Shown: positions 1-25,655, counted from the stretch's first letter. The stretch: 32,813 nucleotides of DNA from Jimgerdemannia flammicorona (GCA_003990765.1 RBNJ01000333.1:1-32813); one strand, 5' to 3'. Program-made: numbers and translations. Notes: a model not told the origin generated them from the letters alone.

Positions 1-1400
1 TTTTTTTTGTTTAATGGACTCAATGTTCTGCAGATTTTTATTGGAAGGGAACCTAGACTATATATGCCAAAACCCTCCCCCACCACCCATCAAGCACTGC
101 CCCCCCATTAACCTAGGCTAGCTATTGTCCAGCAGCTCGACCATGCCAGGCACAGCAGGGCCAATGGCAGCCTGCACCTCATTCTGCACACCATGCTCTT
201 CCTACCACCAGGGGAAGCCCAACCATATGCCAACGACCAAAAGTGTATACTTGAGAACCCAACATATGTATAAGGCCATGCTTGAGCTGAATAGAATAGC
301 CCCTGCCATTCCAAAGAGAATGACAGGCAAAGAAAAACCCTCATCAAAGCACAACACAGTGGGTAGGGCCTGGTTCTCCCAGTTGAGGTGAGTAAAGGAC
401 TTATATATAAGGTGGGAGGAGATCCCCAATACCCCACTACTCAAGCCTGTGGGCCTCAATCACATTGCTGTATCAGCTCCCAGTTCCAGTTGAGTGCAGC
501 CAAGATGCCTGAAATAGATAGCCTCGGGCCCCCCACCCCCCCTGATGACTGGGGCTAATCTGCCAACCTGCCAAAAGAAGCTGAGAGTGTCATCTACCAC
601 TTAACCATGCTATATCAATTGAAAGGCCCCACTGAAGCAGCACCTGCCCTAGCCCCAATGACTGCCCCCAGCCTAGCACCCTACTGGTTCACCATTATCA
701 CCCTTCCTCCTATCTGTGATGGCCATCTCCCCTCCCATCCCAACATCACCCAAAAAGCAGTCACCTATGCCAGAACCACACTTGCTGGGAAGCTTACCAA
801 AGCCAGAGAGCCCCACCACAGGCACCAAGGACCTACAGGTAACCTACACTGAGCACTTGATGCCCAAGGTCAGCTGACTCCCTACATAGCCCGAGACACA
901 CCGAGACACTACCTTGTTGGTGACAGCAAAAGGAAGAAGGCACCACACCAAAACAGATGTACTCCAGATATAGCCGAAGGTACCAGAAACTGCAAAAAAG
1001 TGGAGAAGACACCAATCCAACACTGATAAAGGGGCAACTCATTACCATTGCCCTCCTCCCACTATGCCCATATAGGCACAGCAAACCAATCCAAGGTAAA
1101 GGGGGTAATAATAGGGGAAAGGGGACTTGAAAGGTTGCCTACTAAACCTTGTGACTGGTAAGGTAGTGGAGAAAGGAGCCTGCAACCTCTCTCATCATCC
1201 AGCCTCCTTTCTACACCCAGCTGGTCTCCTACTGCTATCCAAAAGTCCCCCAGTATACTATTATTCTCTATGAACAGTATAACTAACATTTTCTCATTGA
1301 ATATAAATGGTCTAAGGAACTCAGCAAGGTATTAGAATATTTTTTCTTAGCTAAAGTAACTGGATTTCTATTGCAGGATTTATGGTGAGAGGAGGATGTA
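1..1400 (+). mobile_element. Degenerate non-LTR retrotransposon (L1/Tx1-like) fragment: probable decayed ORF1 region plus the start of the ORF2 APE endonuclease
   Basis: ATG at 1270 reads MNSITNIFSLNINGLRNSARY*NIFS*LK*LDF, then LQD after a frameshift. This matches the LINE ORF2 APE N-terminal pattern (SLNINGL...IFxWLK...LQE). The stops are consistent with transitions from TGG/CAG/CAA. The region is strongly CpG-depleted. The ORF1 assignment upstream is positional only. Confidence 0.55.
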
Positions 1401-1461
1401 GATAGGTAAGAGTATACAAGAGAGTGTGGTCATGTAGCTATTTAAAGGAACAAGGTTGGAA

Positions 1462-2392
1462 TCTCACCATGACCAGAACCCCTCCAGATTCTGAGAATTC
1501 TCCATGACAAGAACCCTCCACTGAAGAAACCATCCACCTGACAAGAACCCTCCACTGAAGAAACCCTCCACCTGACAAGAACCCTCTACCTGACAAGAAC
1601 CCACCATCTGACCAGAACCCTCCACTCGCCAAGAATCCTCCACTCGGCAAGAACTCTCCACCCAACGAGAACCCTGACCCGAACCCTCCACAACGAAAAC
1701 CCTCCACGACGAGAACCCTCCACGACAAGAACCCTCAACGACAAGTACCCTCCACGACGAGAATCATCCACGATGAGAACTGTCCATCTGATGAGATCCC
1801 TTCATGACAAAATCCTCCACACAATGGGAGCTCTCCACCTGACGAGAGCCCTCTACCTGACAAGAATCCTCCATCTGACAAGAACCCTCCACTCACGAGA
1901 ACCCTCCACCTGACAAGAACCTTCCAACTGATGAGAACTCCACCTGACAAGAACCCTCCTCGACGAGAAAATTCTACCTGAGAAGAACCCTCCATGACCA
2001 AAACCCTCCGCCCAGTGAAAACCTTTCATCTGATGGGAATCCTCCACCAGAAATCCACCATCTGGCAAGCCCCCCACTCGCCAAGAACCCTCCACCTGAT
2101 GGGAATCCTTCACCTGACGAGATCCCTCGATGAGGTCCCTCCTCCCAATGAGATCCCTCCACTGGATGAGAACCCTCCACCTGATGTGAACCCACCTGAC
2201 GAGAACCCTCCCCCACCTGACAAGGACCCTCCAAGATAAGATCCCTCCACCCCATGAGAACCCTCCACAACGAGATCCCTCTACCCGACGAGAACCCTCC
2301 ACCCGACGAGGAACTCCCACCTGACAAGAACTCCCCATCTGGCAAGAACCCTCCATTCGCAGAGAACCCTCTACCCAACGAGAACCCCCACC
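1462..2392 (+). repeat. Degenerate minisatellite, ~21-bp unit (some 18 bp), consensus CCACCTGACRAGAACCCT(CCA)
   Basis: Dozens of recurrences of gacaagaaccctcc/gacgagaaccctcc. The 3' part reads as PPPDENP-like heptads in ORFs 1994..2239 and 2254..2520. Confidence 0.9.
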
Positions 2393-2564
2393 ACGGTCCC
2401 TTGCAGTCAAATGACGTCGATTATGTGTGCGCTGTAACGCTAAATATCCTACTCTCCCTGAGTACCTATATCACAATGGCCTCGCTCCGACCCCAACGGT
2501 CCTGGAACATTGCCTGTTGAACATCGGCGGCTAACGCGTTGATATTTGAAAGAGTACGGGACGA

Positions 2565-3461
2565 CTACAGATGTGGTGAAGGTTGCTGTTGCTGTTTCAG
2601 CGGTGATGGTTGATACATTGTTGTGATGACATGCGCAGGTGCAACTGTGCCAGATGGCGAGTAACACAGCAAATCAAAAATCTTATTGAAAGCTGTTTTC
2701 TTGCCTAAGGAAGACATTACCGTCGTCAACCTCGTACGACATTGAACCATGTATGCGACGAAGTCCTGAAAGACGAGGCTACGTTCCGGGCGACAGTGCC
2801 TTCCAATACCACGATTTTTCTATCTCCAGATCCAGCTCGCCTAATTCCTCCGATCCCTCACATTATATTGCATCTTACCAGTATAGACGGTGACACTCCG
2901 TTCCTTTCTGGGGTGTCCTTCAAATATTTCGTCATACGGAACATCTGCATTTTGATGTGGTTCTTATCTAGCGATCACTTGTCAGTGGCCTTGCCTTAGT
3001 CCCTTGCATCGAATCAATCAAGACCCATCTCCGGACAGCACCACGAACACATCCAGTAGGGGTTGAAAATAGAATTGCAGTTATGCCGCACAAAGGATGC
3101 GGGCATCTTCCGCAAGCATGTCATTAGCCCGGAGAGTGACTAGCTACCTGTTGAGCATGGTTTCGAAAGGCATGGAGATTGTGGGCATGATGAACACTTC
3201 GACGCCGTGCGCAAAATCCCAATTGGTCAACAGTTTGAGTTGCCCGATTCGGTATTGCGGATCTGGCATGGCGGACGATAACGGGCGCAATGGTCACATT
3301 CGTGCTGAGTCGAACAGTCGGAGGAGCAACAATCGCTCGGACCTCCCGGATTGTTTCTGAAGACGAGGATAACTCTAAACGCACGAAATTCCCGGGACAG
3401 GCAACCGGAGTAGCCGGCGGCCTTTTTCCTACAGGCGCGACACTTGTCGAACCTTGCGCAT
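2565..3461 (-). pseudogene. Possible decayed protein-coding gene of unknown family
   Basis: Protein-like minus-strand frames are broken by stops and frameshifts (MPDPQYRIGQLKLLTNWDFAHGVEVF...; WYWKALS/PERSLVFQDFVAYMVQCRTRL). A TATA-like TATAAAT lies on the minus strand near 3491-3497. Confidence 0.25.
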
Positions 3462-5324: not shown

Positions 5325-6038
5325 CGTCAAATAAAATAATAAGATTGGAATCAGGAGGTTGAGTAAGGAAAAAGTCGGTATAGTGCCACAAAACGCCTAT
5401 CCTAAAGTCGATCACGTTCTTTTCCAACCCAATAACAATCGCATTGCCCATCAAAACATCACTGACTGAGCCGTTCACTCACACCTCCTACCATACATGG
5501 ATGGTATCTGGAGGGACGACCTACCTCTGGGCTACGATTTACGGCTGGGCGGCGATTTACGGCTGGGCGGCGATTTATCGCTGAGAGAGGATATATCGAT
5601 GGGCATCGATTTCTGTGGACGGATAGCTGAGAGTTAATGGGGTGACAGCCTGCGTGGACAACTAATTACGTCTAACCTTTCTGAGGCTCGCTGCGAATGA
5701 CGAAGAGCATGAACAACAATTAACCTTGTTGGCTAATGACATTTGCGACAACAAATAGTCTCCGGGTGGAATTAGCGGCTGGTGGACAGTTATTCGCTTC
5801 GGGATTATTAAGGGCGACGCTGCAGTGCGTTGCGGTGGAGTGATGCACTAAATGAGTATAGCAAATGAACGTTGGAAGATGGTTAGATGCTGCGGGATGG
5901 CATGCCGTTGAGGTATGAAGTGCAACTGAGGACGGCGGTGGGCAAAATGAAGAGGAACGGCGGAATGGTGGAGTGTAGCATTCGGACAACGTTTGTTTTG
6001 AAAGTATCCACGGCCACGTGCTCTCCGCCACATTTCAT
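5325..6038 (-). repeat. Left arm of a long diverged inverted repeat (partner 7517-8468)
   Basis: The reverse complement matches the partner colinearly: tgaaatgtggcggaga.cacgtg, agcgtcgcccttaataatc, aaggttagacgtaat, cccagccgtaaatc, gactttaggataggcgt. Confidence 0.85.
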
Positions 6039-7516: not shown

Positions 7517-8468
7517 TGAAATGTGGCGGAGAACACGTGACCGTGTATTCTTGCAAGTCCGAACACTACACTCCGCCATTCCTCCGTCCATCTTCATTTC
7601 GCCCATCACCAGCCTCAGCTGCTCTCCATACCGCAACAACTTTCCTTCTCACAGCGGCTAACCTTTCCTCCAGTGGATATTCGCCGTACTCAAGGTGCAT
7701 TGCTGCGTCGTAATGCGTTGCCTACAATGGCTAGTTGTCACACTGCTACCACCCTGAAGCCAGCCGTCATAGCGTCGCCCTTAATAATCTCTTTGCGAAT
7801 AATCCTCTACAGGCCGCTAATTAATCCCCGGAGTACCGCCAACGGGGACCATCGTTGGCCAGCAGGTTATTGTCAGTAATCGGCAAAGCGTCACGCAGCT
7901 ACAAATCGGCAGCCAGCATGAAATAGTTGCTCGGTAGAAAGTCGCTACTCACTGGTAATTTGTCTCTCTTCGCCATTCCCAGCGAGTCCGGTGGAAAATC
8001 GTTTCTCACTGGTAATTTGTCTCTCTTCGCCATTCCCAGCGAGTTCAGTAGAAAGTCGTTGCTCACTGGTATTTTGTCTCTTTTCGCAATTCCCAGCGAG
8101 CCATAGCAAGGTTAGACGTAATGAGTCGCCCACGCGGGCTGGCTCCCCTATTTAACTCTCAGCGATCGGTCCACAATCGCATGTTATCGCTCGCCATCAA
8201 ATCAGCGCCATCAGTAAATCGTCGCTCCGCCGTAAATCGTTTCCCAGCCGTAAATCACAAATCATCGCGCCAGAAATGTAAGGAGCAGGATAGGGGGGGT
8301 GGGGGGGGGAGGGGGGAGGGTAGTGGTTCAGTCATTTATGTTTATAATAGGGAATGCGATTGTGATCGTGTCGGAAAAGAATGGGATTGACTTTAGGATA
8401 GGCGTGTTGTGGCGATTTGGCGACTTATTTCTCACTTAACCGTACCGATCTCAATTTATTATTTGATT
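7517..8468 (+). repeat. Right arm of a long diverged inverted repeat (partner 5325-6038)
   Basis: Same anchors in the same order as the reverse complement of 5325-6038. It is longer because of an internal tandem triplication and a G-rich run near 8293-8320. Confidence 0.85.
7930..8100 (+). repeat. Three tandem copies of a ~58-bp unit inside the right inverted arm
   Basis: gtagaaagtcg...ctcactggtaatttgtctctcttcgccattcccagcgag occurs three times; the left arm has only one similar segment. Confidence 0.9.
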
Positions 8469-9292: not shown

Positions 9293-10139
9293 CCTCCGTA
9301 TCTAATTTCTCGAAAGGAACCAGTTGAATATGGACGTGAGACACGAGTCGCACAAATGCCGCGCATTACCTCCGGAAGCCGTCGTCGCCCTTGCTACCTT
9401 GCGAGCATGGTTTTATAGTGACTCCGAGGTGTCGCGCAAAATGAATAACTGGACGATGCGCGCGCATTCCGAAATTGGCGGCTGTTTGGGTTTGGCTGAT
9501 CTGGTAAGGTGGGTGGGACGTGTTGAACAACGCGAAATTTTGAACAAGCGCGATGATCTCGTTCTTTTGCTGTCTAACGATCGTCATTGAGGCCTCCGCG
9601 ATGGTATCCGGTGACGTGCGAACAACCTCGAAAACACAGAACACTTTGAATTTGAACAGGCAATTGGAAACCTTCTTTCTGTAGGTGAGTCACTTGTCGA
9701 GTCTTTCGTACGCTTTGGCCACACACCTGCGCAATTGAACATTAAAGTTCTCCTGCGGCACCCTTCTCGCGTTTCAACGGCTTTTCGGTGTGTCGTGACT
9801 TGTGTGGGCGGGTCTTCGGAAAGGTATTTTCGTTTATGCTGGCGTTGGCATTGGTGTTGACACCATCGTTGACTTTGGCGTTGGCGTTGTGGCCTGGAGC
9901 ACGAGGGACGGTTTCCAATTCGAGTCGAATACGAACATGGACCTCGCCATCGCCTCGAAGTCGAGGTTGTATTAGATGGCGATGCGGACGTGGGTGGAGC
10001 AGCGGCAGCTACTTGGCTTTCCGATGACGTGCCGTTGCCTGATCGTACGATCGACCTTGGGTTTGGAATATGTGGAATGCATATGGATAGAAGCGTGGAA
10101 CGCATCGAGGTGGCAGTTAAGGATTCTGTTGTGTTAGCA

Positions 10140-13100
10140 GCCGCTGGGCGTGTCGTTGGAGCTGCTGCGGGGATCGTAGTGCTAGAAGTGGCGTAGCATT
10201 TCGCGGCAGCAGCAGCATGGATCGTTGCGGAAACAACCATGGCACGTCACTGTAGTTGTGGCAGGGCTCATAGTTATAGAAGCGGTGGGACCCGTCGTGA
10301 CAGCTACCGCGGGGTGGGTTTCCTTTCAGTCGTGGGGCGTGTCGTAGTAGCAGTAGCGGTGCTTGTCATGGTAGGACCCGCGGGACGCGTAGTGTTAGCA
10401 GCCGAGGGCGCGTCGTAGAAGCGTCAAAGGGATGGTCTTCCGTGATAGCGGTCGTGGGGCGCGTCGTTGGAGCTGGGGCGGGGATCTTAGTGCTAGAAGC
10501 GGCGTAGCGCTTCGAGGGTAGCATCTGCATGGCTCGTTGTGGAAACAACCATGGCCACGTCGCTGTAGTGGTGGCAGGGCTCGTAGTTATAGGAGCGGTG
10601 GGACGTGTCGTGGCAGCTGTCGTAGGGTACGTTGTTCTTGTAGCCGTGTGTCGTAGTAGCAGTAGCGGAGCCTGTCGTGGTAGGACCCGCGGGACGCGAC
10701 GTGTTAGCACCTGCGCGCGAGTCGTAAAATCATCACAGGGACGGTCTTGCATGATAGCGGGCGTGGGACATTCGGCGTTGTGCTTCGAGGTAGCAGCCGC
10801 ATGGCTCGTTGTGGAAACAACCACGGGCACGTAGCTGTAGTAGTGGCAAGGCTGGTAGAGAAGTGGTGGGATGCGTCGTGGCAGCTGCCGCAGGGTGCGT
10901 TGTCCTTGCAGCTGTCGGGCTTGTCCTGGTAGGACCCGCGGGACGCGACGTGTTATGAGCTGCGGGCGCGTCGCACAATCTTCAAAGGGACGGTCTTGCG
11001 TGATAGCGGCCGTGGGACGCATCGTTGGATCTGCGGCAGTGCGCTTCGAGGTAGCATCTGCATGGCCCGATGTGAAAATAACCACGGCCACGTCGCTGTA
11101 GTGGTGGCAGGGCGCGTAGTTACGGAAGCGGTGGGACGTGTCGTGGCAGTTACCGCAGGGTGCGTTTTTCTTGTAGCCCTGTCATATCGTAGTAGCAGTA
11201 GAGGTCCGTGTCGTGGTAGGACCCGCGGGACACGGCAAATTATCAGCGGCGGGTGCGTCGTAGAAGCGGCCGTAGGGCGCGTCATAGAAGCATCAAATGG
11301 GCGGTCTTGCATGATAGCGGCCGTGGGGCGCGTCATAGAAGCGTCAAATGGGCGGTCTTGCGTGATAGCGGCCGCGGGGCGCGTCGTTGGAGTTGCGACG
11401 GGGATCATAGTGCTAGAAGCGGCGTAGCGTTTCGTGGTAGCATCTGCATGGCTCGTTGTGGAAGCAACCACGGCCACGGCTGTAGTGGTGGCAGGGCTCG
11501 TAGTTATAGAAGCGGTGGGACGTGTCGTGGCAGCTCGTTGTTCTTGTAGCCGTGGGGCATGTCGTAGTAGCAGTAGCAATGCGTGTCGTGGTAGGACCCC
11601 CGTAGGACGCGACGTGTTAGCAACTGCGGGCGCGTCGTAAAATCATCAAAGGCACGGTCTTACGTGATAGCGGCCCTAGGACACCTGCGGTGTTGCGCTT
11701 CGAGGTAGCAGCTGCATGGCTCGGTGTGGAAACAACCACGGGCACGTCGCTGTAGTGGCGGCAGGGCTCGTAGTTATAGAAGCGGTGGGACGTGTCGTGG
11801 CAGCTGCCGTAGGGTACATTGCTCCTGTAGCCGTGGGGCATGTCGTAGTAGCAGTAGCGGTGCGTGTCGTGGTAAAATAATCAAAGGGACGGTCTTGCAG
11901 GATAGCGGGCGTGGGACGCGTCGTTGGATCGGCGGCGTTGCGCTTCGAGGTAGCAGCCGCTTGGCTCGTTATGGAAACAACCACGGGCACGTCGCTGTAG
12001 TGGTGGCAGGGCTCATAGTTATAGAAGCGGTGGGACGTGTCGTGGGAACTGCCGTAGGGTGCGTTGTTCTTAAAGCCTGGGGCATGTCGAGTAGCAGTAG
12101 CGGTCCGTGTCTTGGTAGGACCCACGGGACGCGGCATGTTATCAGCCGCGGGTGCGTCGTAGAAGCGGCCGTGGGGCGCGTCATAGAAGCATCAAATGGG
12201 CGGTCTTGGTTGATAGCGGTCGTAGGACTTGCGGGGGGATATTAGTGCTAGAAGGGCGTAGCGGTTCGAGGGTAGCATCTGCATAGCTCGTTGTGGGGCC
12301 ACGTCGCTGTAGTGGTGGCAGGGCTCGTAGTTAGAGAAGCGGTGGGACGTGTCGTGGTAGCTGTCGTAGGGTGCGTTGTTCTTGTAGTTGTGGGGCATGT
12401 CGTAGTAGCAGGAGCGGTGCGTGTAGTAGTAGGACCCGCGGGACGCGGCTTGTTATCAGCCCTGGGCGGGGCGTAGAAGCGGCCGCAGGGCGCGTCATAG
12501 AAACATCAAAAAGACGGTCTTGCTGATAGAGCATCGTTGGAGCTGCGGCGGGGGTAGTAGTGCTAGAAGCGGCGTTGCGCTTCGAGGTAGCAGCCGCATG
12601 GCTCGTTGTGGAAACAACCAGGGTACGTCGTTGTAGTGGTGGCGGGGCTCGTAGTTATAGAAGCGGTAGGACGTGGCGTGACAGCTGCCGTGGGTGCGTT
12701 GTTCTTGAAGCCGTGGGGCATGTCGTAGTAGCAGTAGCGGCGCGTGTCGTGGTAGGACCCGCGTGTTAGCAACTGCGCGCGCGTCGTAAAATCATCAAAG
12801 GGACGGTCTTGCGTGATAGTGGGCGTGGGACGCGTCGTTGGACCTTCGGCATTGCGAGGAAACAACCACGGGCACGTCGCTGTAGTGGTGGCAGGGCTCG
12901 TAGTTATGGAAGCGGTGGGACGTGTCGTGGCAGCTGCCGCAGGGTGCGTTTTTCTTGTAGCCCTGGATCATGTCGTAGTAGCAGTAGAAGTCCGTGTCGT
13001 GGTAGGACCCGCGGGACACGGCATGTTATCAGCGGCGGGTGCGGCGTAGAATCGGCCGTGGGGCGCGTCATAGAAGCATCAAATGGGCGATCTTGCGTGA

Positions 13101-16100
13101 TAGCGGCCGTGGGACGCATCGTTGGAGTTGTGGCGGGGATCTTAGTGCTAGAAGCGGCGTAGCGTTTCGAGGTAGCATCTGCATGGCTCGTTGTGGAAAC
13201 AACCACGGGCACGTCGCTGTAATGGTGGCAGGGCTCGTAGTTATAGGAGCGGTGGGGCGTGTCGTGGCAGCTGCCGTAGGGTACGATGTTCTTGTAGCCG
13301 TGGGGTGTGTCGTAGTAGCAGTAGCGGTGCGTGTCGTGTTAGCAGCTGCGGGCGCGTCGTAAAATCATTTTAGAATGGTCTTGCGGGATAGCGGGCGTGG
13401 GACGCGTCGTTGGATCGGCGGCGTTGCGCTTCGAGGTAGCAGCCGCTTGGCTCGTTGTGGAAACAACCACAAGCACGTCGCTTTAGTGGTGGCAGGGCTC
13501 GTAGTTATAGAAGAGGTGGGACGTGTCATGGGAACTGCCGTAGGGTGCGTTGTTCTTGAAGCCGTGGGGCATGTCGTAGTAGCTATAGCGGTCCGTGTCT
13601 TGGTAGGACCCGCGGGACGCGGCATGTTATCAGCCGCGGGCGCGTCGTAGAAGCGGCCGTAGGGCGCGTCATAGAAGCATCAAATGGGCGGTCTTGCGTG
13701 ATAGCGGCCGTGGGACGCGTCGTTGGAACTGCGGTGGGGATTGCGGCGTTGCCCTTCGATGTAGCAGCCGCATGGCTCGTTGTGTAAACAACCATGGGCA
13801 CGTAGCTATAATGGTAGAAGGGCTCGTAGATATGGAAGTGGCGGGATGCGCCATGGCAGCTGCCGCAGAGTGCGTTGTCCTTGTAGCCCTAGGGCGTGTC
13901 GTAGTAGCAGTAGCGCTGCGTGTCGTGGTAAGACCCGCGGGACGCGACGTATTAGCAGCCGCGGGCGCATCGTAAAATCATCAATGGGACGGTCTTGCCA
14001 TGGGATGCGTAATTGTATCTGCGGCGGGGATGGTAGTGCTAGAAGCGGCGTTGCGCTTCGAGGTAGCAGCCGTATGGCTCGTTGTGGAAACAACCGCGGG
14101 CACGTCGCTGTAGTGGTGGCAGGGCTCGTAGTTAGAGAAGCGGTGGGACGTGTCGTGGTAGCTGTCGTAGGGTGCGTTGTTCTTGTAGTTGGGGGCATGT
14201 CGTAGTAGCAGGAGCGGTGCGTGTAGTAGTAGGACCCGCGGGACGCGGCGTGTTATCAGCCCTGGGCGTGTCGTAGAAGCGGCCGCAGGGCGCGTCATAG
14301 AAATATCAAAGAGACGCTCTTGCTGATAGAGCATCGTTGGAGCTACGGCGGGGGTAGTAGTGCTAGAAGCGGCGTTGCGCTTCGAGGTAGCAGCCGCATG
14401 GCTCGTTGTGGAAACAACCAGGGTACGTCGTTGTAGTGGTGGCGGGGCTCGTAGTTATAGAAGTGGTAGGATGTGGCGTGGGTGCGTTGTTCTTGTAGCC
14501 GTGGGGCATGTCGTAGTAGCAGTAGCGTGTTAGCAGCTGCGCGCGCGTCGTAAAATCATCAAAGGGACGGTCTTGCGTGATAGTGGGCGTGGGACGCGTC
14601 GCTGGACCTTCGGCATTGCGCTTCGAGGAAACAACCACGGGCACGTCGCTGTAGTGGTGGCAGGGCTCGTAGTTAGAGAAGCGGTGGGATGTGTCGTGGT
14701 AGCTGTCGTAGGGTGCGTTGTTCTTGTAGTTGTGGGGCATGTCGTAGTAGCAGGAGCGGTGCGTGTAGTAGTAGGACCCACGGGACGCGGCGTGTTATCA
14801 GCCCTGGGCGCGTCGTAGAAGCGGCCGCAGGGCGCGTCATGGAAACATCAAAGAGACGGTCTTGCTGATAGAGCATCGTTGGAGCTGCGGCGGGGGTAGT
14901 AGTGCTAGAAGCGGCGTTGCGCTTCGAGGTAGCAGCCCCATGGCTCGTTGTGGAAACAACCAGGGTACGTCGTTGTAGTGGTGGCGGGGCTCGTAGTTAT
15001 AGAAGCGGTAGGATGTGGCGTGACAGCTGCCGTGGGTGCGTTGTTCTGGTAGCGTCGTAGTAGCAGTAGCGCGTTAGCAGCTGCGCGCGCGTCGTAAAAT
15101 CATCAAAGGGACGGTCTTGCGTGATAGTGGGCGTGGGACGCGTCGCTGAACCTTCGGCATTGCGCTTCGAGGAAACAACCACGGGCACGTCGCTGTAGTG
15201 GTGGTAGGGCTCGTAGTTATGGAAGCGGTGGGACGTGTCGTGGCAGCTGCCGCAGGGTGCGTTTTTCTTGTAGCCCTGCATCATGTCGTAGTAGCAGTAG
15301 AAGTCCGTGTCGTGGTAGGACCCGCGGGACACGGCATGTTATCAGCGGCGGGTGCGGCGTAGAATCGGCCGTGGGACGCATCGTTGGAGTTGTGGCGGGG
15401 ATCTTAGTGCTAGAAGCGGCGGAGTGTTTCGAGGTAGCATCTGCATGGCTCGTTGTGGAAACAACCACGGGCACATCGCTGTAGTGGTGGCAGGGCTCGT
15501 AGTTATAGAAGCGTTGGGACGTGTCGTGGCAGCTGCCGTAGGGTACGATGTTCTTGTAGCCGTGGGGTGTGTCGTAGTAGCAGTAGCGGTGCGTGTCGTG
15601 TTAGCAGCTGCGGGCGCGTCGTAAAATCATCAAAAGAATGGTCTTGCGGGATAGCGGGCGTGGGACGCGTCGTTGGATCGGCGGCGTTGCGCTCCGAGGT
15701 AGCAGCCGCTTGGCTCGTTGTGGAAACAACCACGAGCACGTCGCTTTAGTGGTGGCAAGGCTCGTAGTTATAGAAGAGGTGGGACGTGTCATGATAACTG
15801 CCGTAGGGCGCGTTGTTCTTGAAGCCGTGGGGCATGTCGTAGTAGCTGTAGCGGTCCGTGTCTTGGTAGGACCCGCGAGACGCGTCGTAGAAGCGGCCGT
15901 AGGGCGCGTCATAGAAGCATCAAATGGGCGGTCTTGCGTGATAGCGGCCGTGGGACGCGTCGTTGGAACTGCGGTGGGGATAGCGGCGTTGCCCTTCGAG
16001 GTAGCAGCCGCATGGCTCGTTGTGTAAACATCCATGGGCACGTAGCTATAATGGTAGTAGGGCTCGTAGATATAGAAGTGGTGGGATGCGCCGTGGCAGC

Positions 16101-16910
16101 TGCCGCAGAGTGCGTTGTCCTTGTAGCCCTAGGGCGTGTCGTAGTAGCAGTAGCGCTGCGTGTCGTGGTAAGACCCGCGGGACGCGACGTATTAGCAGCC
16201 GCGGGCGCATCGTAAAATCATCAATGGGACGGTCTTGCCATGGGTTGCGTAATTGTATCTGTGGCGGGGATGGTAGTGCTAGAAGCGGCGTTGCGCTTCG
16301 AGGTAGCAGCCGCATGGCTCGTTGTGGAAACAACCGCGGGCACGCCGCTGTAGTGGTGGCAGGGCTCGTAGTTAGAGAAGCGGTGGGACGTGTCGTGGTA
16401 GCTGTCGTTCTTGTAGCTGTGGGGCATGTCGTAGTAGCAGGAGCGGTGCGTGTAGTAGTGGGACTCGCGGGACGTCAGCCCCGGGCGCGTCGTAGAAGCG
16501 GCCGCAGGGCGCGTCATAGAAAGATCAAAGGGACGGTCTTGCTGATAGCGCGTCGTTGGAGCTGCGGCGGGGGTAGTAGTTCTAGAAGCGGCGTTGCGCT
16601 TCGAGGTAGCAGCCGTATGGCTCGTTGTGGAAACAACCATGGATACGTCGTTGTAGTGGTGGCGGGGCTCGTAGTTAGATAAGCGGTAGGACGTGGCGTG
16701 GCAGCCGCCGAGGGTGCGTTGTTCTTGTAGCCGTGGGGCATGTCGTAGTAGCAGTAGCGGCGCGTGTCGTGGTAGGACCCGCTGGACGCGGCGTGTTAGC
16801 AGCCGCGGGCGCGTCGTAGAAGCGGCCGTGGGGCGCGTCATAGAAGCACCAAATAGACGGTCTTGTGTGATAGCGGCCGTGGGACGTGTCGTAGAAGCAT
16901 CCAAGGGACG
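10140..16910. repeat. CpG-rich satellite, ~23 monomers of ~220-390 bp built from ~24-bp subunits, with a ~1.8-2.3 kb higher-order repeat
   Basis: The anchor ggctcgttgtggaaacaacc recurs roughly every 300 bp (about 10229, 10541, 10813...16629). Diagnostic variant monomers recur at 13781 and 16021, and at about 12300, 14100, 14642 and 16340. Confidence 0.95.
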
Positions 16911-17647
16911 ATCTGGCGTGGTGGAGTGCGTTGCGATACGGCCCACGGGGAGTGGCGTAGTAGGATTGCCTTGAGTAGTGGAGCGCGTCACGGTGGAGAG
17001 CGTCGTGGTGGAACGCATCGTGGTGAAGGGCGTTGTGAAAGGGCCCGCGCGGGGCGCGACGTAGTAGCAGTCACGGAACGGCCGTGAGTGGTAAAGCGAG
17101 GGCGTCGTGGTGGGACGCGTCGTGGCAGAGCAGCGGCTGGACCTTCTGTGATGGTGGAGCGCGTGGAAGTTGTACGAAATTTGGGATCTTGTCGTTGGGG
17201 TGTTATGAGTAGAGGCTATTGGGAAGACAAGAAGGGTGTAGAATAATCTTGATACCGAACGCGAACCATATACAAATTCTGTTGCCACTGATTTCCTCGT
17301 TGACGTCACCATGATCCTGCCAACACAGTGGCTGAGAGCCCACGTACTGAAGTTACATTTGACTTGGAAAGATGACGATTTGTCCCTGACATTCATATAA
17401 TTTGCACGAGGAGTATCCGATGGGTTCTACTTTCCCATCAACATGCGAAATGACGCTAGTAGGAAAACCTAATCCCCACTGATCAGGTTATAAATATTAA
17501 ATATATAATATTAACTAAAAATATATAGTGGGTTATAAAGAGAAAAAAAAAAAATCGAAATACTTTAATCCGATTATTAGATGCGGAATCTTCAAGATAT
17601 TCCGATTTGCTTGGTTACGGTTGTGCGATTCCAATGACTAAATCAAA

Positions 17648-17700
17648 AAAATAAAATAAAATAAAATAAAATAAAATAAAATAAAATAAAATAAAAAAAA
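17648..17700 (+). repeat. (AAAAT)n microsatellite
   Basis: About 9 perfect pentamers flanked by A-runs. Confidence 0.95.
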
Positions 17701-18209
17701 TACATGGAACCGGTTTGCGTGGTTTTTTAATTTAGTATTGCTTGCGACGTGGCTGCCACGCGAGGCCGAGGCCAACAGACTTGGCGCTGGTCACTGACAC
17801 ATACGCGAAATAAGGCCTTGTATGGCAATTGTCACGCAACATAGAACATTCGTATATTTTGATATGTCTGTACATGTATTCGTCAACTGATTTAATATAG
17901 CAAAAACCCAGAGAATTCTTGCCAGACTTGTCACTGTCCATCGACCATCTAAACCGCAGGATTGAAATTGGACAATGTTGGTTAACGCCCTTGTATTGTA
18001 ATATCCCGTGAGAAGTCACGTGTTAATAATGCCGTTGCACAAACGCAATAGGTTTTCTTGCTTTTTTTTCATGTCTTACATACGCCACAGTTTTTCCGGC
18101 TCATATTCCCAAGACGCTGGCTGCCACCCTTCGCTAAGTCTTCGGCCTCAATTGCTGGCACTCAACGTTCAAGCGCGGAATTAATTGCTGCGACTAAAAA
18201 CATCTGCGA

Positions 18210-18409: not shown

Positions 18410-19760
18410 GCTTTTCGAAAGTGGAAACGCTTGCGAAAATTAACGTGTTTCCGACCCCCTTTCCAAAACAAGCTTTTCGGATCTATGTAGGAAAGAAATT
18501 AGCTCTAGATTTCGAGTACTACGTGGTAACAGACGAGTCTTGTTGACCAAGGGAGAGTCATCTCTCGGGGAATTCATGCTTAGTTTTTGATACGGCTTAT
18601 TTACGTATCTTTTGGTATTGCCGGCTAGAGTGGTTCCTGAAGGACTTTGGCGTTCGCCTTGAAGGCCGGAAGAAATCGTTGGCTTTACCATGGGTTTTAA
18701 CCCTCCTTGACGAAGCAAGCCGTAGAGCGAAGCGTGGCTCACTTTTGAGCCTGACGTTATGACTCCGGTGGGGCTTCCTTTCATTTAAAGATTCGCTGGA
18801 AGCTTTCGAAAGTGGAAACGCTTGCCTAAATCAACGTGCTTCCGACCACCTTTCGAAAATCAAGCTTTTCGGATCTATAAAGGAAAGAAATTAGCTCTAG
18901 ATTTCGAGTACTCAGTGGTAACAGACGAATCTTGTTTACCAAGGGAGAGTCATCTCTCGGGGAATTCATGCATTAGTTTTTTATACCGCTTAGGAAGGAA
19001 AGAAATTAGCTCTAGATTTCGAGTACTTGGTGGTAACAGACGAATCTTGTTGACCAAGGGAGAGTCATCTCTCGGGGAATTCATGCATTTGTCTTTGATA
19101 CCGCTTATTTACGTAACTTTTGGTATTGCCGGCTAGAGTTCTTCCTTAAGGTTTTTGGCGTTCGCTTTGAAGGCCGGAAGAAATCGTTGGCTTTACCATG
19201 GTTTTTAACCCTCCTTGACGAAGCAAGCCGTAGAGGGAAGCGTGGCTCACTTTTGAGCCTGACGTTATGACTCCGGTGGGGCTTCCTTTCATTTAAAGAT
19301 TCGCTGGAAGCTTTCGAAAGTGGAAACGCTTGCCAAAATCAACGTGTTTCCGACCCCCTTTCCAAAATCAAGCTTTTCGGATCTATAAAGGAAAGAAATT
19401 AGCTCTAGATTTCGAGTACTCAGTGGTAACAGGATACCGCTTAGGAAGGAAAGAAATTAGCTCTAGATTTCGAGTACTTGGTGGTAACAGACGAATCTTG
19501 TTGACCAAGGGAGAGTCATCTCTCGGGGAATTCATGCATTTGTTTTTGATACCGCTTATTTACGTAACTTTTGGTATTGCCGGCTAGAGTGCTTCCTGAA
19601 GGTTTTTGGCGTTCGCTTTGAAGGCCGGAAGAAATCGTTGGCTTTACCATGGTTATTAACCCTCCTTGACGAAGCAAGCCGTAGAGGGAAGCGTGGCTCA
19701 CTTTTGAGCCTGACGCTATGACTCCGGTGGGGCTTCCTTACATTTAGAGATTCGCTCGAG
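18410..19760 (+). repeat. Three tandem ~390-510 bp units upstream of 18S; probable rDNA IGS/5'ETS subrepeats
   Basis: Units start with ctttcgaaagtggaaacgcttg at about 18411, 18802 and 19310 and are nearly identical. Units 2 and 3 carry an internal ~110-bp duplication, partly deleted in unit 3. The repeat is certain; the IGS/ETS identity is inferred from its position ~240 bp before the 18S start. Confidence 0.8.
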
Positions 19761-19994
19761 GCCTTTGGCGTTCGTTTGAAGGCCGGAAGTAGAACTCTCT
19801 CACTCGCTGTGCGAAGCGAAAGGATTTATTGCCCTTGGGCTTTTTGATCCTTTTTCTCTGCATACATTGGCATTCATTTTGTCAATGAAAAAGGATTGGA
19901 TAACTGCCGAGTGTGTCGGGTTTTCTCGATTGACTCGCTTTCGCTCATTTTTATGCGGAATTTTTTTCGCATATAAAAGAGAGAATATTGTAGT

Positions 19995-20899
19995 TACCTG
20001 ACTAAGCTATGCATGTCTAAGTATAATTAACTTTGGACTGTGAAACTGCGAATGGCTCATTAAATCAGTTATAGTTTATTTGATAATACCTTACTACTTG
20101 GATATCCGTAGTAATTCTAGAGCTACTAAATATATAAAATCCTGACTTCTGGAAGGGATGTATTTATTAGATAAAAACCTAATGCGGGCAACCGCTTCTT
20201 GGGTGATTCTTAATAACTATTCGAATCGTACTGCCTTGCGCGGACGATGATTCATTGCAAATTACTCAATCCCGATACGCCCTTTGGGGTCTTGTAAATC
20301 GGCATGGATACATAATTCGGGTTCCAGCAGCCGCGGTAATTCCAGCTTATGAAAGATGTTACAGTTAAAAAGCTCATAGGACCGGGCGGTCGGGCCTTCT
20401 GGTCCGTACTGCTTTGGGTTGGATGTTTAAAGACAGACATATGCTTGCATACATTGGCATGGAATAAATGGAATAGGACTTTGGTTCTATTTTGTTGGTT
20501 CTAGGACCTTTGTAACGATTAATAGAGATAGTTGGGGGCATTAGTATTTAATTGCCAGAGGTGAAATTCTTGGATTTATGAAAGACTAACTTCTGCGAAA
20601 GCATTTGCCAATTAAAGTTTGAGTTCCAAAGGAAGTATGTTCAAAAGGCTGAAACTTAAAGAAAATTGATATAAGGTTACAACCTTGGCCGAAAGGTCTT
20701 GGTAATATTTTGAAACTCCATCGTGCATTGGAGTTATTGCTCTTCATCGAGGAATTTCTAGTAAGCGCGAGTCATCTGCTCACGTTAACTACGTCCCTAA
20801 ACGACCTATTATCACTATCACAAATTGGATGGCTTATTGAGTGCCTCGAATCAACATCCAGAAGCTGGCAACAGCATCCGGGTTTTGAGAAGTTGGGCA
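19995..20899 (+). pseudogene. 18S rRNA: 18S (SSU) rRNA pseudogene collapsed to ~0.9 kb by multiple internal deletions
   Basis: Colinear conserved SSU blocks: tacctg, atgcatgtctaagtataa, gtgaaactgcgaatggctcattaaatcagtta, ccagcagccgcggtaattccagct, agaggtgaaattcttggattta, ctgcgaaagcatttgcca, ggctgaaacttaaag, ctagtaagcgcgagtcatc, gagaagttgggca. Confidence 0.95.
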
Positions 20900-20941
20900 G
20901 AACGCAGTGAAATGTGATAAGTAATGTGAATTGCAGAATTC
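20899..20941 (+). pseudogene. 5.8S rRNA: 5.8S rRNA core fragment fused directly to the truncated 18S (first copy)
   Basis: agaacgcagtgaaatgtgataagtaatgtgaattgcagaattc matches the fungal 5.8S core AGAACGCAGCGAAATGCGATAAGTAATGTGAATTGCAGAATTC with two C-to-T changes. Confidence 0.92.
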
Positions 20942-21697
20942 GAAAATGACATCCAAAATTTGGTTTGTTTGCTAGTCAGACAGCGCCAAATTATTGGGCT
21001 TTGGGCTTGCCGAATTTTATTTCGGCTGGCTTGAAATAATTTAACTACGTTTGTATAGGGTGGGCAGCAACAAATATCTTGTGTGATTTCAGAACGCAGT
21101 GAAATGTGATAAGCAATGTGAATTGCAGAATTCGAAAATGACATCCAAAATTTGGTTTGTTTGCTAGTCAGACAGCTCGCTTTGGGCTTGCCGAATTTTG
21201 TTTCGGCTGGCTTGAAATAGTTTAACTACGTTTGTATAGGGCGGGCAGCAACAAATATCTTGGGTGATTTCAGAACACAGTGAAATGTGAGAAGCAATGT
21301 GAATTGCAGAATTCGAAAATGACATCCAAAATTTGGTTTGTTTGCTAGTCAGACAGCGCCAAATTATTGGGCTTTGGGCTTGCCGAATTTTATTTCGACG
21401 TTTGTATAGGGCGGGCAGCAACTGACATCCAAAATTTAGTTTGTTTGCTAGTCAGACAGCGCCAAATTATTGGGCTTTGGGCTTGCCGAATTTTATTTCT
21501 ACGTTTGTATAGGGCGGGCAGCAACAAATATCTTGTGCTCTGATTTGCTTCGCTCAATCGAGACAAAAAGTAATGTGAATTGCAGAATTCGAAAATGGCA
21601 TCCAAAATTTGGTTTGTTTGCTAGTCAGACAGCGCCAAATTATTGGGCTTTGGGCTTGCCGAATTTTATTTCGGCTGGCTTGAAATAGTTTAACTAC

Positions 21698-23205
21698 TGT
21701 GACAAGCAGCAGAAGTCAAACGTATCTGGACAGCTAGAACTGCTTTGTCAAAAGACAGTCAAAGATGTCTGGACAGCTAGGGCTGCTTTGTCATGACAAC
21801 TTATATAATTAGCTAGACATACCAGACAGGGTATCTTTTTTTTTTTTTTTTTTTTATAGTCACTTGGACTCCTTCCTTTATTAATACACCTGTCTATCCT
21901 CTATATAATACACAGTACCCACCCCTATCCGATCCCCCTATACCAGAAAGTGTATCTGTACAGGACCTGAACACTTGTACAGGATCTGAACACTTGTACA
22001 GGACCTGAACACTTGTACAGAACCAGAAACACCTGCCATAAATAGCCTTCTATAATTAGCCATGTAGCAACTAGGTAGCAACCAACTTGTATAAAATACC
22101 CCAGAGACAAGAGTGAATAAACCTCAGTCGGAATTGAAGTACAAACCAAAGAAGCCTCTAAAGATTGAGCATTTGTCCCCTTTTCCCACTCCGGTCCATT
22201 TTCCGATACAAAGAACGAGTCCGTTTTGGTTCGCTTGCTAGATAAGCCTGAAGAATCCAAGAAATCCGCCGCCATTTGAGTAATCCGCTGCTTAAGGAAT
22301 AAACCGCCGTTTTCAAGAAGTCCGCCTTTTGCCACAAAGCCAGTCTGTTGACACAACTTCGCAGTAGAGCCAGTCTAACGACGTAACTCCGCGTAAACGA
22401 AGCCAGTCTTGACATAACTTTGCCAAGAGAAGAGGATCCGAGTTATTTAAGAAGTCCGCCGATTCAGGAGAATCCGCGTCATCTGCCGTTTTCAAGTTAT
22501 CCGCTATTCCCAGAGAACCCGCCTTAAGGAAACTTGCCACAAGCCAGTCTTCTGACGCAAATTCGCAGTGGAGCCAGTCTACGACGTAACCCCGCGCAAA
22601 CGAAGCTAGTCTTTGACGTAACTTGCCAATAATCCGCGATCCGCGCCATCCGAGTTATTTCCCAGAACCCCGCCGATTCAGGAAGAATCCGCGACATCCG
22701 AGCTATCCGAGTTATCCGAATTATCCGCCGCCCGAGTTATTCACCCGTTCCCAGTGAGCCGATTCAGGAAGAATCCGCGTCACCGAGTTATCCGAGTTAT
22801 CCACCAAATCCGCATAAGGAAACCGCCGCGCTACACAGAGATCGTCGCGCTACACAGAGATCGTCACGCAGAAATCGCATAAGAAGTCCACTCGCACTAC
22901 ACAAAGATCGTCGCGCTACACAAGAGATCGTCACGCAGAAATCGCATACTTTTGGAGATCGCCGTCACTCAAGAAGGAAACCGCTAAATTACCAGTCCGC
23001 CACACACCCATAAATCGCCGCTACACCCAGAGAACCCTCCCAATAAGGAAATCCGCCAGAATCGACCACCGTATCCAGATTTGACTATTATACCACTAAA
23101 CACCAAGAAAATTTTGTTGCTTTTGACAAAGTAACTGGGGGCTCAAGCCAAACTACATCAACCCCCAACCTTGTAATTTGCCTCCGTTGAGCCAGGCACG
23201 TTACA
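21698..23205. mobile_element. Solo LTR or LTR-derived non-autonomous insertion, 1508 bp
   Basis: Begins TGTGAC and ends GTTACA, flanked by a 4-bp duplication CTAC (21694-21697 and 23206-23209). Removing it restores taactacgtttg as in the other units. It contains TATAAAA (~22091) and AATAAA (~22116), and no gag/pol ORF is evident. Confidence 0.85.
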
Positions 23206-23244
23206 CTACGTTTGTATAGGGCGGGCAGCAACAAATATCTTGTG

Positions 23245-25655
23245 CTCGAGACAAACTCTGATTTGCTTCGCTCACTCGAGACAAACTCTGATTTGCTTCG
23301 CTCACTCGAGACAAACTCTGATTTGCTTCGCTCAATCGAGACAAACTCTGATTTCAGAACGCAGTGAAATGTGATAAGTAATGTGAATTGCAGAATTCCA
23401 AAATGACATCCAAAATGTGTTTTGTTTGCTAGTCAGACAGCGCCAAATTATTGGGCTTTGGGCTTGCCGAATTTTATTTCGGCTGGCTTGAAATAGTTTA
23501 ACTACGTTTGTATAGGGCGGGCAGAAACAAATATCTTGTGCTCGAGACAAACTCTGATTTGCTTCGCTCGCTCAAGACAAACTCTGATTTGTTAGAGTTA
23601 TGAACGTAGCTCAAACTTCGGCAAAGTGGCCGAAGCCACGGATAAACCACTATCATGCAATCTTTCAGGTCTTTCATGCAATCTTAGCTTAGTGTCAGTT
23701 CCCTGCCACGCCGTTTCTTATGCAATCTTAGCTTAGTCTCAGTTCCCGTTGCGCTGTTTCTTATGCAATGTTAGCCTAGTCTCAGTTCCCCGGCAAGGTG
23801 CCAGCGGCAAATAGCTTAGCAACGTTTCAGTATGCATTATATGTAATATCCCCCTGAGCGACTGAGTACGCGTCGCATCTTAACAATCAAGCGCGTAGAC
23901 TACGCCTGTATACTTAGTTAGTTCCTGCAATCAGTTACGCAACCCATCCCGCCCTTCCCTCTTGGAGGAGGAACAATAAATGTGCGGCCCCTTCGCTTTA
24001 CGCGAATGGCGGGCCTGGGAAGCGCATGCTTCCATATTCACCAAACCCGTCGACCCAGCTTACATCAGCACACCCGATTTAGCATAACACATCTCACATA
24101 CATTTCACGCGAAGGACACTTTGCTTCGCTCAATCGAGACAAACTCTGATTTGCTTCGCTCACTCGAGACAAACTCTGATTGGCTTCGCTCAATCGAGAC
24201 AAACTCTGATTTCAGAACGTAGTGAAATGTGATAAGTAATGTGAATTGCAGAATTCGAAAATGACATCCAAAATTTGGTTTGTTTGCTAGTCAGACATCG
24301 CCAAATTATTGGGCTTTGGGCTTGCCGAATTTTATTTCGGCTGGCTTGAAATAGTTTAACTACGTTTGTATAGGGCGGGCAGCAACAAATATCTTGTGCT
24401 GGAGACAAACTCTGATTTGCTTCGCTCACTCGAGACAAACTCTTATTTGCTTCGCTCAATCGAGACAAACTCTGATTTGCTTCGCTCACTCGAGACAAAC
24501 TCTGATTTCAGAACGCAGTGAAATGTGATAAGTAATGTGAATTGCAGAATTCGAAAATGACATCCAAAATTTGGTTTGTTTGCTTGTCAGACAGCGCCAA
24601 ATTATTGGGCTTTGGGCTTGCCGAATTTTATTTCGGCTGGCTTGAAATAGTTTAACTACGTTTGATAGGGCGGGCAGCAACAAATATCTTGTGCTCGAGA
24701 CAAACTCTGATTTGCTTCGCTCAATTGAGACAAACTCTGATTTGCCTTCGCTCACTCGAGACAAACGCTGATTTGCTTCGCTCAATCGAGACAAACTCTG
24801 ATTTTCGCTCACTCGAGACAAACTCTGATTTGCTTCGCTCACTCGAGACAAACTCTGATTTCCTAACGCAGTGAAATGTAATAAGTAATGTGAATTGCAG
24901 AATTCGAAAATGACATCCAAAATTTGGTTTGTTTGCTAGTCAGACAGCGCCAAATTATTGGGCTTTGGGCTTGCCGAATTTTATTTCGGCTGGCTTGAAA
25001 TAGTTTAACTACGTTTGTATAGGGCGGGCAGCAACAAATATCTTGTGCTCGAGACAAACTCTGATTTGTTTCGCTCAATCGAGACAAACTCTGATTTGCC
25101 TTCGCTCACTCGAGACAAACGCTGATTTGCTTCGCTCAATCGAGACAAACTCTGATTTTCGCTCACTCGAGACAAACTCTTATTTGCTTCGCTCAATCGA
25201 GACAAACTCTGATTTGCTTCGCTCACTCGAGACAAACTCTGATTTCAGAACGCAGTGAAATGTGATAAGTAATGTGAATTGCAGAATTCGAAAATGACAT
25301 CCAAAATTTGGTTTGTTTCCTAGTCAGACAGCGCCAAATTATTGGGCTTTGGGCTTGCCGAATTTTATTTCGGCTGGCTTGAAATAGTTTAACTACGTTT
25401 GTATAGGGCGGGCAGCAACAAATATCTTGTGCTCGAGACAAACTCTGATTTGCTTCGCTCAATCGAGACAAACTCTGATTTGCCTTCGCTCACTCGAGAC
25501 AAACGCTGATTTGCTTCGCTCAATCGAGACAAACTCTGATTTTCGCTCACTCGAGACAAACTCTGATTTGTTTCGCTCAATCGAGACAAACTCTGATTTG
25601 CTTCGCTCAATCGAGACAAACTCTGATTTGCTTCGCACACTCGAGACAAACTCTA
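23245..25655 (+). repeat. 30-bp minisatellite TCGAGACAAACTCTGATTTGCTTCGCTCA(C/A) nested in the rDNA-derived units
   Basis: Blocks of 4, 5, 4, 6, 7 and 8 copies of gagacaaac in successive units, with head-to-tail copies and no spacers. Confidence 0.95.
23592..24119 (+). mobile_element. ~0.53 kb LTR-like insertion in the 30-bp subrepeat
   Basis: Interrupts ctctgatttg|cttcgctc with TTTG on both sides (23588-23591 and 24120-24123). TGTTA...TAACA spans 23590-24089. It has three ~41-bp internal repeats (atgcaatcttagcttagtctcagttccc) and AATAAA near 23975. Boundaries are ambiguous. Confidence 0.7.

Follow-up and report, generated by a model that had tools for sequence, protein, structure and literature searches.

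A higher-order satellite array in Jimgerdemannia flammicorona with two shared frame shifts and a probable, though not provable, coding ancestry

Here we describe a tandem array on the minus strand of a 32,813-nucleotide (nt) stretch of DNA from Jimgerdemannia flammicorona (GCA_003990765.1, RBNJ01000333.1:1-32813; hereafter the window), a fungus of the order Endogonales in the Mucoromycota. The core of the array, at 10135-16930, is a non-coding satellite with higher-order structure, and no protein is made from it. Its monomers carry two shared frame shifts that interrupt a Thr/Pro/Ala-rich reading. We infer that the array goes back to a Ser/Thr/Pro/Ala-rich coding stretch, probably but not provably, the chance of such an ancestry being in our estimate slightly better than even. 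An initial annotation of the window had proposed a satellite of 6.8 kb, derived from a frameshifted mucin-like coding repeat; the observation itself has been confirmed, the proposed size fits the core of the array, and the interpretation is partly supported.

With an 11-nt anchor motif and MAFFT alignment the core was resolved into 23 head-to-tail monomers of 219-386 nt and a partial leading copy. Over 10146-16875, Tandem Repeats Finder scored periods of 302-325 nt at up to 1189. The majority consensus of the monomers, which the initial annotation had recommended building, is 313 nt long, or 337 nt with an optional 24-nt unit, and pairwise identity within the family ranges from 78 to 99%. Shorter periods are nested within the array, of 24 nt in several places, of 51 nt at 11265-11385 and of 15 nt at 16978-17037. 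Each monomer is made of about 13 recognisable, diverged 24-nt units, every unit being eight codons that end in Pro. The two halves of the monomer, A and B, are related to each other as well; in an alignment of 22 in-frame segments MAFFT overlaid B on A, and that profile was abandoned. The parts of the array are as follows.

10135-16930, minus strand: core tandem array of 23 monomers, from repeat finding, alignment and consensus.
16931-17170, minus strand: degenerate 5' edge of the array (60-69% similarity), Thr-rich in the frame of a 391-residue open reading frame (ORF), with 15-nt (5-codon) sub-repeats at 16978-17037.
14097-16336, minus strand: first pass of the higher-order unit, monomers m2-m9, of which m8-m9 duplicate m6-m7 (98%), from monomer identities.
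12306-14096, minus strand: second pass of the higher-order unit, monomers m10-m15, 97.6% identical to m2-m7 over 1680 aligned nt, from block alignment.
10135-12305, minus strand: monomers m16-m23, older and with more divergence (78-94% identity to the others), from monomer identities.

The array stands out from its surroundings in composition. Its G+C (GC) fraction is 0.59-0.61 across 10001-17000, against 0.33-0.51 in the rest of the window, and the GC skew of the block is +0.25 to +0.34. The 5' boundary is gradual, with 17170-16926 still 60-69% similar to the core monomers; on the 3' side the array breaks off abruptly near 10135, and BLAST finds no match to it in the flank there.

The monomers are arranged in a higher-order pattern. 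The pairs m2/m10, m3/m11, m4/m12, m5/m13, m6/m14 and m7/m15 are 97-99% identical, as are m6/m8 and m7/m9, whereas adjacent monomers are just 82-91% alike and pairs outside the higher-order set 78-96%. Since distant monomers resemble each other more than neighbours do, the body of the array is a six-monomer higher-order unit that is present twice. Tandem Repeats Finder placed paired 24-nt rows at 13303 and 15565, an offset of ca. 2.26 kb, which fits a two-monomer duplication inside the first higher-order copy. The eight monomers closest to the 3' end (78-94% identity) are older. The two young copies differ by 26 transitions and 15 transversions (a ratio of 1.7) and by indels of 23, 4-versus-3, 51, 5, 23, 1 and 10 nt, mostly not multiples of three, which amounts to roughly one indel per six substitutions. 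With this transition-to-transversion ratio of 1.7, a CpG observed/expected ratio of 1.31 and a GC fraction of 0.60 (the latter two over 10150-17150), the array is without sign of C-to-T hypermutation.

The array is closed to translation. None of the three frames of the 313-nt consensus is free of stops, and because 313 is not a multiple of three, any one frame cycles through all three readings over three monomers. The three minus-strand frames of 10150-17150 contain 38, 56 and 40 stops, and the longest open stretch, of 401 codons, lies at the 5' edge. Differences between monomers are spread evenly over codon positions 1, 2 and 3, with 39/42/32 minimal events in segment A (P = 0.50) and 47/37/30 in segment B (P = 0.15); the copies drifted neutrally after amplification. 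Coding on the plus strand was considered and rejected, with 112-129 stops per frame over the same 10150-17150 interval against an expected 106 +/- 10. Introns that would remove the shift sites were likewise rejected, inspection by eye having found no GTRNGT-type donor in the monomer.

The two halves of the monomer read in different frames, segment A as VVVSTTSH...TTRP and segment B as AA(A/D)N...TTATCP. The junction from A to B is 17 nt long at 14 of the 15 sites matched by the search pattern, which skipped some monomers with variant upstream bases; three monomers bear larger deletions there. The only 18-nt form is the copy at the array edge, 10133-10153, which is also the only one to read PTTRPAAANTT in frame, just as the initial annotation had described an in-frame edge and internal monomers one base shorter. 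It had also reported a second shared shift, between TTSPATTTAT and PVVVSTTSH, and this is borne out by the junction from B to A, which measures 30 nt at 15 of 19 matched sites, 29 nt at three and 28 nt at one, the 28-nt form happening to restore the continuity of the frame. No monomer subtype lacks either shift, and even the most diverged copies towards the 3' end (80-87% identity) have both; the lengths of the junctions are constant although their letters vary between subtypes. Representative copies are these.

13626-13645, minus strand: first shared shift (A to B) in its 17-nt short form, where TTRP continues as RLI... and not as AA(A/D)N...
13195-13224, minus strand: second shared shift (B to A), a 30-nt junction between ...TATCP and VVVSTTSH.
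10133-10153, minus strand: edge copy with the 18-nt junction, one base longer, and in-frame PTTRPAAANTT.

The shifted monomer is the present common form across subtypes, and it arose either before amplification or through later homogenisation. The earlier proposal that the frame was lost first and the repeat then amplified as a non-coding satellite is upheld in so far as the array is non-coding and the shifts are found in all subtypes; the sequence of events it assumed has an alternative in homogenisation.

When the T/P/A/S-rich reading is followed by a trace that may switch frames, the path through 10135-16930 comprises 2272 codons with 67% T/P/A/S, as compared with 40-41% and 38-55 stops in the fixed frames. 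It takes 46 switches, 33 in the -1 and 13 in the +1 direction, and leaves eight stops, so that no uninterrupted frame runs through the repeats.

These lesions bear on two readings in which the array would still be expressed. In the first, it would be a live giant mucin-like gene of ca. 2,300 codons, and the shifts would be systematic errors of the assembly. It is true that in most monomers each recurrent shift coincides with CCC before a G, where some long-read base callers make mistakes, and one extra C would mend the frame. However, the short junction length is kept where the C run precedes A or T (cgcccaggg..., cgccctcgg...), and the lesions track monomer subtype and are common to the higher-order copies. 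Deletions of 5, 10, 23 and 46 nt also occur away from the two sites, eight stops lie on the best path, and a hydropathy scan gave no signal-peptide candidate. Judged from the sequence, assembly errors are an unlikely source of the shifts, and we regard a live gene as very improbable.

In the second, the array in its present form would yield protein, with repeated programmed -1 ribosomal frameshifting, or else transcript slippage, at both junctions. Such a scheme could draw on the predominance of -1 switches (33 of 46) and on their recurrence at fixed sites, but neither junction offers a slippery X XXY YYZ heptamer (ACG CGC CCG CGG at one, ACG TGC CCG TGG at the other). The 13 switches in the opposite direction, the stops that remain and the absence of coding constraint in the changes among copies speak against it too, and we give it next to no weight.

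The question then is what the array was made from. A triplet rhythm runs through it at several levels. In two monomers, 75 of 113 and 70 of 103 codons have C as their second base, and the sub-repeat periods, at 15, 24 and 51 nt, are without exception divisible by three. This rhythm could be inherited from one periodic founder unit, which weighs against a coding origin and is the heart of an alternative in which the array never coded. There, a 24-nt minisatellite with built-in triplet rhythm would have grown into the 313-nt monomer and then into the higher-order array; the founder may have come from a trinucleotide run of the (RCN)n type or from the intergenic spacer of a dispersed, decayed ribosomal DNA (rDNA) unit, and the Thr/Pro/Ala 'frame' with its 'shifts' would be a rhythm displaced by ordinary one-base indels. 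We accord this alternative a substantial chance, somewhat short of even.

ORFs on the minus strand enter and leave the array where the initial annotation had placed them, at 17396 and at 10240-9584.

16221-17396, minus strand: 391-residue ORF entering the array, with its ATG at 17396, open from 17426 and ending at a double stop in monomer m2.
17171-17396, minus strand: 5' part of the 391-residue ORF, without similarity to the array and with no hydrophobic signal-like start.
9584-10240, minus strand: 218-residue ORF (with ATG) leaving the array and open for 181 codons past its edge.
9941-10126, minus strand: non-repeat 3' flank, Ser/Thr/Pro/Ala-rich in the frame of the last unit, with C fractions of 0.23/0.53/0.26 at codon positions 1/2/3.

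Followed in the phase of the Thr/Pro/Ala reading, the sequence has no stop for 181 codons past the 3' edge (P = 0.0076) and for 85 codons past the degenerate 5' edge (P = 0.0152; both from 5000 first-order Markov resamplings), the 3' figure weakening to P = 0.037 if any of the six frames is allowed. The first 186 nt of the 3' flank are dissimilar to the array, yet they show an excess of C at codon position 2 in the same phase (chi-square P = 0.0004); by this measure P was 0.05 to 1 in eight control stretches from other places. The open frames in phase with the rhythm on both sides, and the passage of the rhythm in phase through sequence unlike the array, count against an array that never coded. 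With about one indel per six substitutions in the young copies, an edge that had decayed neutrally should have lost its phase, and the in-phase flank thus favours coding ancestry. We count the sole in-frame junction in the same direction, since it lies at the array edge, where homogenisation is weakest. The suggestion that the coding repeat expanded inside its own gene draws on the same in-phase open flanks and on C at position 2; it is plausible, and the label as such is unsupported. Just upstream of the ATG at 17396 on the minus strand there is also an (AAATA)13 microsatellite with an AT-rich stretch, at 17640-17702. The surroundings of the array showed no features of a transposon.

A number of results weigh against coding ancestry. 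Ten 24-nt units compared with one another differ near-equally at the three codon positions (0.45/0.47/0.53), and this equal change from unit to unit means that even the oldest layer of the array is without sign of protein-level selection. Together with the even spread from monomer to monomer, it speaks for an array that never coded. A crude hydropathy scan found no signal-peptide-like start at the ATG or up to 1.4 kb upstream, and the AlphaFold2 single-sequence model of the ORF in the 3' flank has a mean predicted local distance difference test score (pLDDT) of 42, which is uninformative.

Searches for relatives point the same way. A monomer-long peptide of 97 residues, in which both halves are by chance in frame, found no relative among 1.84 billion representative proteins; its sole match (E = 5.7e-5) was compositional, to a Pro/Thr-rich protein. 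In protein searches covering subjects of 0.55-1.75 times the query length, neither the 401-residue 5' ORF, whose candidates were saturated by Thr-rich proteins, nor its unique residues 1-110, nor residues 40-220 of the 3' ORF gave a homologue. The ESM Atlas gave no usable match. Of 27 + 150 ORFs, the 150 being the longest of 173 ORFs of at least 60 residues outside the array, none had a Pfam match at or above the family cut-off, and four had sub-threshold noise matches. Scanning metagenomes for a 20-nt word that 12 of the monomers contain gave two loci, which share that word alone. The protein libraries thus yielded no intact paralogue or orthologue of the monomer peptide or of the separately searched flanks, and as far as protein databases go the flanks have no intact homologue, an outcome that the initial annotation had itself named as counting against its reading. 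Its term 'surface protein' finds no backing, there being no signal-peptide-like start, no Pfam family and no homologue of the monomer peptide or flanks. This lack of homologues and domains in the protein and Pfam searches is in keeping with an array that never coded.

The surroundings of the array also have to be counted on that side. The whole 32.8-kb window appears to be without a protein-coding gene, a gene desert of tandem repeats and satellites, and a degenerate small-subunit ribosomal RNA (rRNA) gene lies 2.8 kb from the array. This copy, at 19984-20949 on the plus strand (237.6 bits), covers 966 nt against a model of 1831 positions, is internally deleted and, within 19984-20962, runs directly into a 5.8S fragment (model positions 40-102). 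Eight partial 5.8S pieces, scoring 26-39.5 bits (below the gathering score of 42), lie inside ca. 300-384-nt repeats at 20899-25310; no large-subunit rRNA was found in the window. The nearby degenerate rDNA keeps an rDNA-spacer origin of the array among the possibilities, and the eight 5.8S pieces in their tandem repeats lend it further colour. Such an origin would be in line with the known sources of satellites, which include rDNA spacers, micro- and minisatellites and the growth of long units from short ones (PMC12692304), and with the degraded rDNA units and spacers that are scattered in the human genome (PMC5381670). On the other side, the array and the rDNA-side repeats have no repeat family in common, and the array is sharply bounded in GC (0.60 versus ca. 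0.42).

Returning to coding ancestry, which we consider the slightly better supported origin, we suggest the following order of events. The starting material would most probably have been a low-complexity Ser/Thr/Pro/Ala-rich coding stretch from a now dead gene. It would have gone through three nested rounds in which copies were made and diverged, by slippage and unequal exchange. In the first, a 24-nt unit of eight codons (roughly TAAxTTRP) would have been copied and diverged; in the second, about 13 such units would have formed a monomer of ca. 313-337 nt; and in the third, a block of six monomers would have been copied as a higher-order unit. Two one-base losses would have placed the future halves A and B of the monomer in different frames, and either the broken monomer was then amplified ca. 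23-fold or both losses spread through the array by homogenisation. The copies would afterwards have drifted neutrally, and the edges of the array, where homogenisation is weakest, would retain the older in-frame state. For this history as a whole, from the coding stretch of a dead gene through a broken monomer to a satellite, we see about an even chance. We are more doubtful of a narrower version, in which the satellite was born from the variable repeat of a dead mucin-like gene, lost its frame while higher-order expansion went on, and keeps its in-frame ancestor at the edges of a GC- and CpG-rich array spared C-to-T hypermutation; this is possible and rather unlikely. Were it true, tandem arrays of this sort would be either exempt from such a defence against repeats or younger than it.

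The rest of the window holds several other repeats. At 18443-19838, between the array and the rRNA fragment, there are three copies of a 450-508-nt repeat, 78-95% identical, which end ca. 150 nt before the rRNA. At 20840-25654 on the plus strand, ca. 300-384-nt tandem repeats each contain the same 5.8S fragment and runs of a 30-nt sub-repeat, and this block looks like a satellite made from an rDNA fragment. Near the other end, 1505-2392 consists of ca. 52 copies of an 18-nt (6-codon) unit whose plus-strand reading is Pro-rich and NPPPDK-like; both strands have long open frames here, and the surrounding interval 1-3000, in contrast to the rest of the window, is depleted in CpG (observed/expected 0.39). 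Inverted-repeat arms form two pairs, at 5357-5707 and 8080-8441 (complementary over 100 nt at 79% and over 69 nt at 81%), around ca. 2.4-2.9 kb. Short ORF pieces on one arm resemble those on the other, and the whole may be a decayed element with long inverted ends.

Several known systems resemble parts of this array. Fungal cell-wall adhesins and mucins of the FLO, ALS and Msb2 type have Ser/Thr/Pro-rich repeats with unit lengths that are multiples of three, which expand and contract by recombination; their frame is intact, and the proteins bear a signal peptide and anchor signals. The array is like them in its Ser/Thr/Pro-rich repeats with multiple-of-three units, their composition being reached here along the frame-switching path only (67% T/P/A/S), and unlike them in that no intact frame was found, and no signal peptide either. 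A frameshift in the variable number tandem repeat (VNTR) of MUC1 is also known. In human CEL, single-base deletions have been described in a coding mucin-like VNTR (PMC8692231). As in these VNTRs, a one-base change in a Thr/Pro-rich coding repeat would shift all downstream repeats. The CEL and MUC1 frameshifts, however, are single events in live genes, whereas here the shifted unit itself has multiplied, twice per monomer over 23 monomers, and no gene survives.

Among satellites, section 4.1 of PMC12692304 names as sources transposable elements, rDNA spacers, micro- and minisatellites and other satellites. Like satellites grown from shorter units in that account, the present array has nested periods (24 nt, ca. 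313 nt and a six-monomer block), a younger homogenised body with older variants at the edge, and no open frame. It differs from the satellites treated there in that its founder unit has a codon-like rhythm and both flanks are open in phase, and these two features point to a coding source, which is absent from the list in section 4.1. In other respects it recalls satellites from rDNA spacers and dispersed, degraded rDNA units (PMC12692304; PMC5381670), being a GC-rich array of ca. 300-nt repeats a few kb upstream of a small-subunit rRNA, with 5.8S pieces amplified in tandem nearby. A difference lies in the rRNA copy, which in this case is a deleted 966-nt fragment against a model of 1831 positions, and no large-subunit rRNA turned up in the window. 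In titles and abstracts of the published literature, and in section 4.1 of PMC12692304, no satellite derived from a coding repeat was found, although one may exist in print.

If the array never coded, it would be one more minisatellite- or rDNA-spacer-derived satellite in a repeat-rich fungal genome, and a caution that neither a triplet rhythm nor long 'repairable' frames are enough to demonstrate a gene. If coding ancestry is true, however, it would be a clean and datable case of a protein-coding repeat turning into satellite DNA once selection on the frame was gone, from a source missing from the list in section 4.1 of PMC12692304. It would then also provide a test case for the sparing of tandem arrays by repeat-directed C-to-T mutation.

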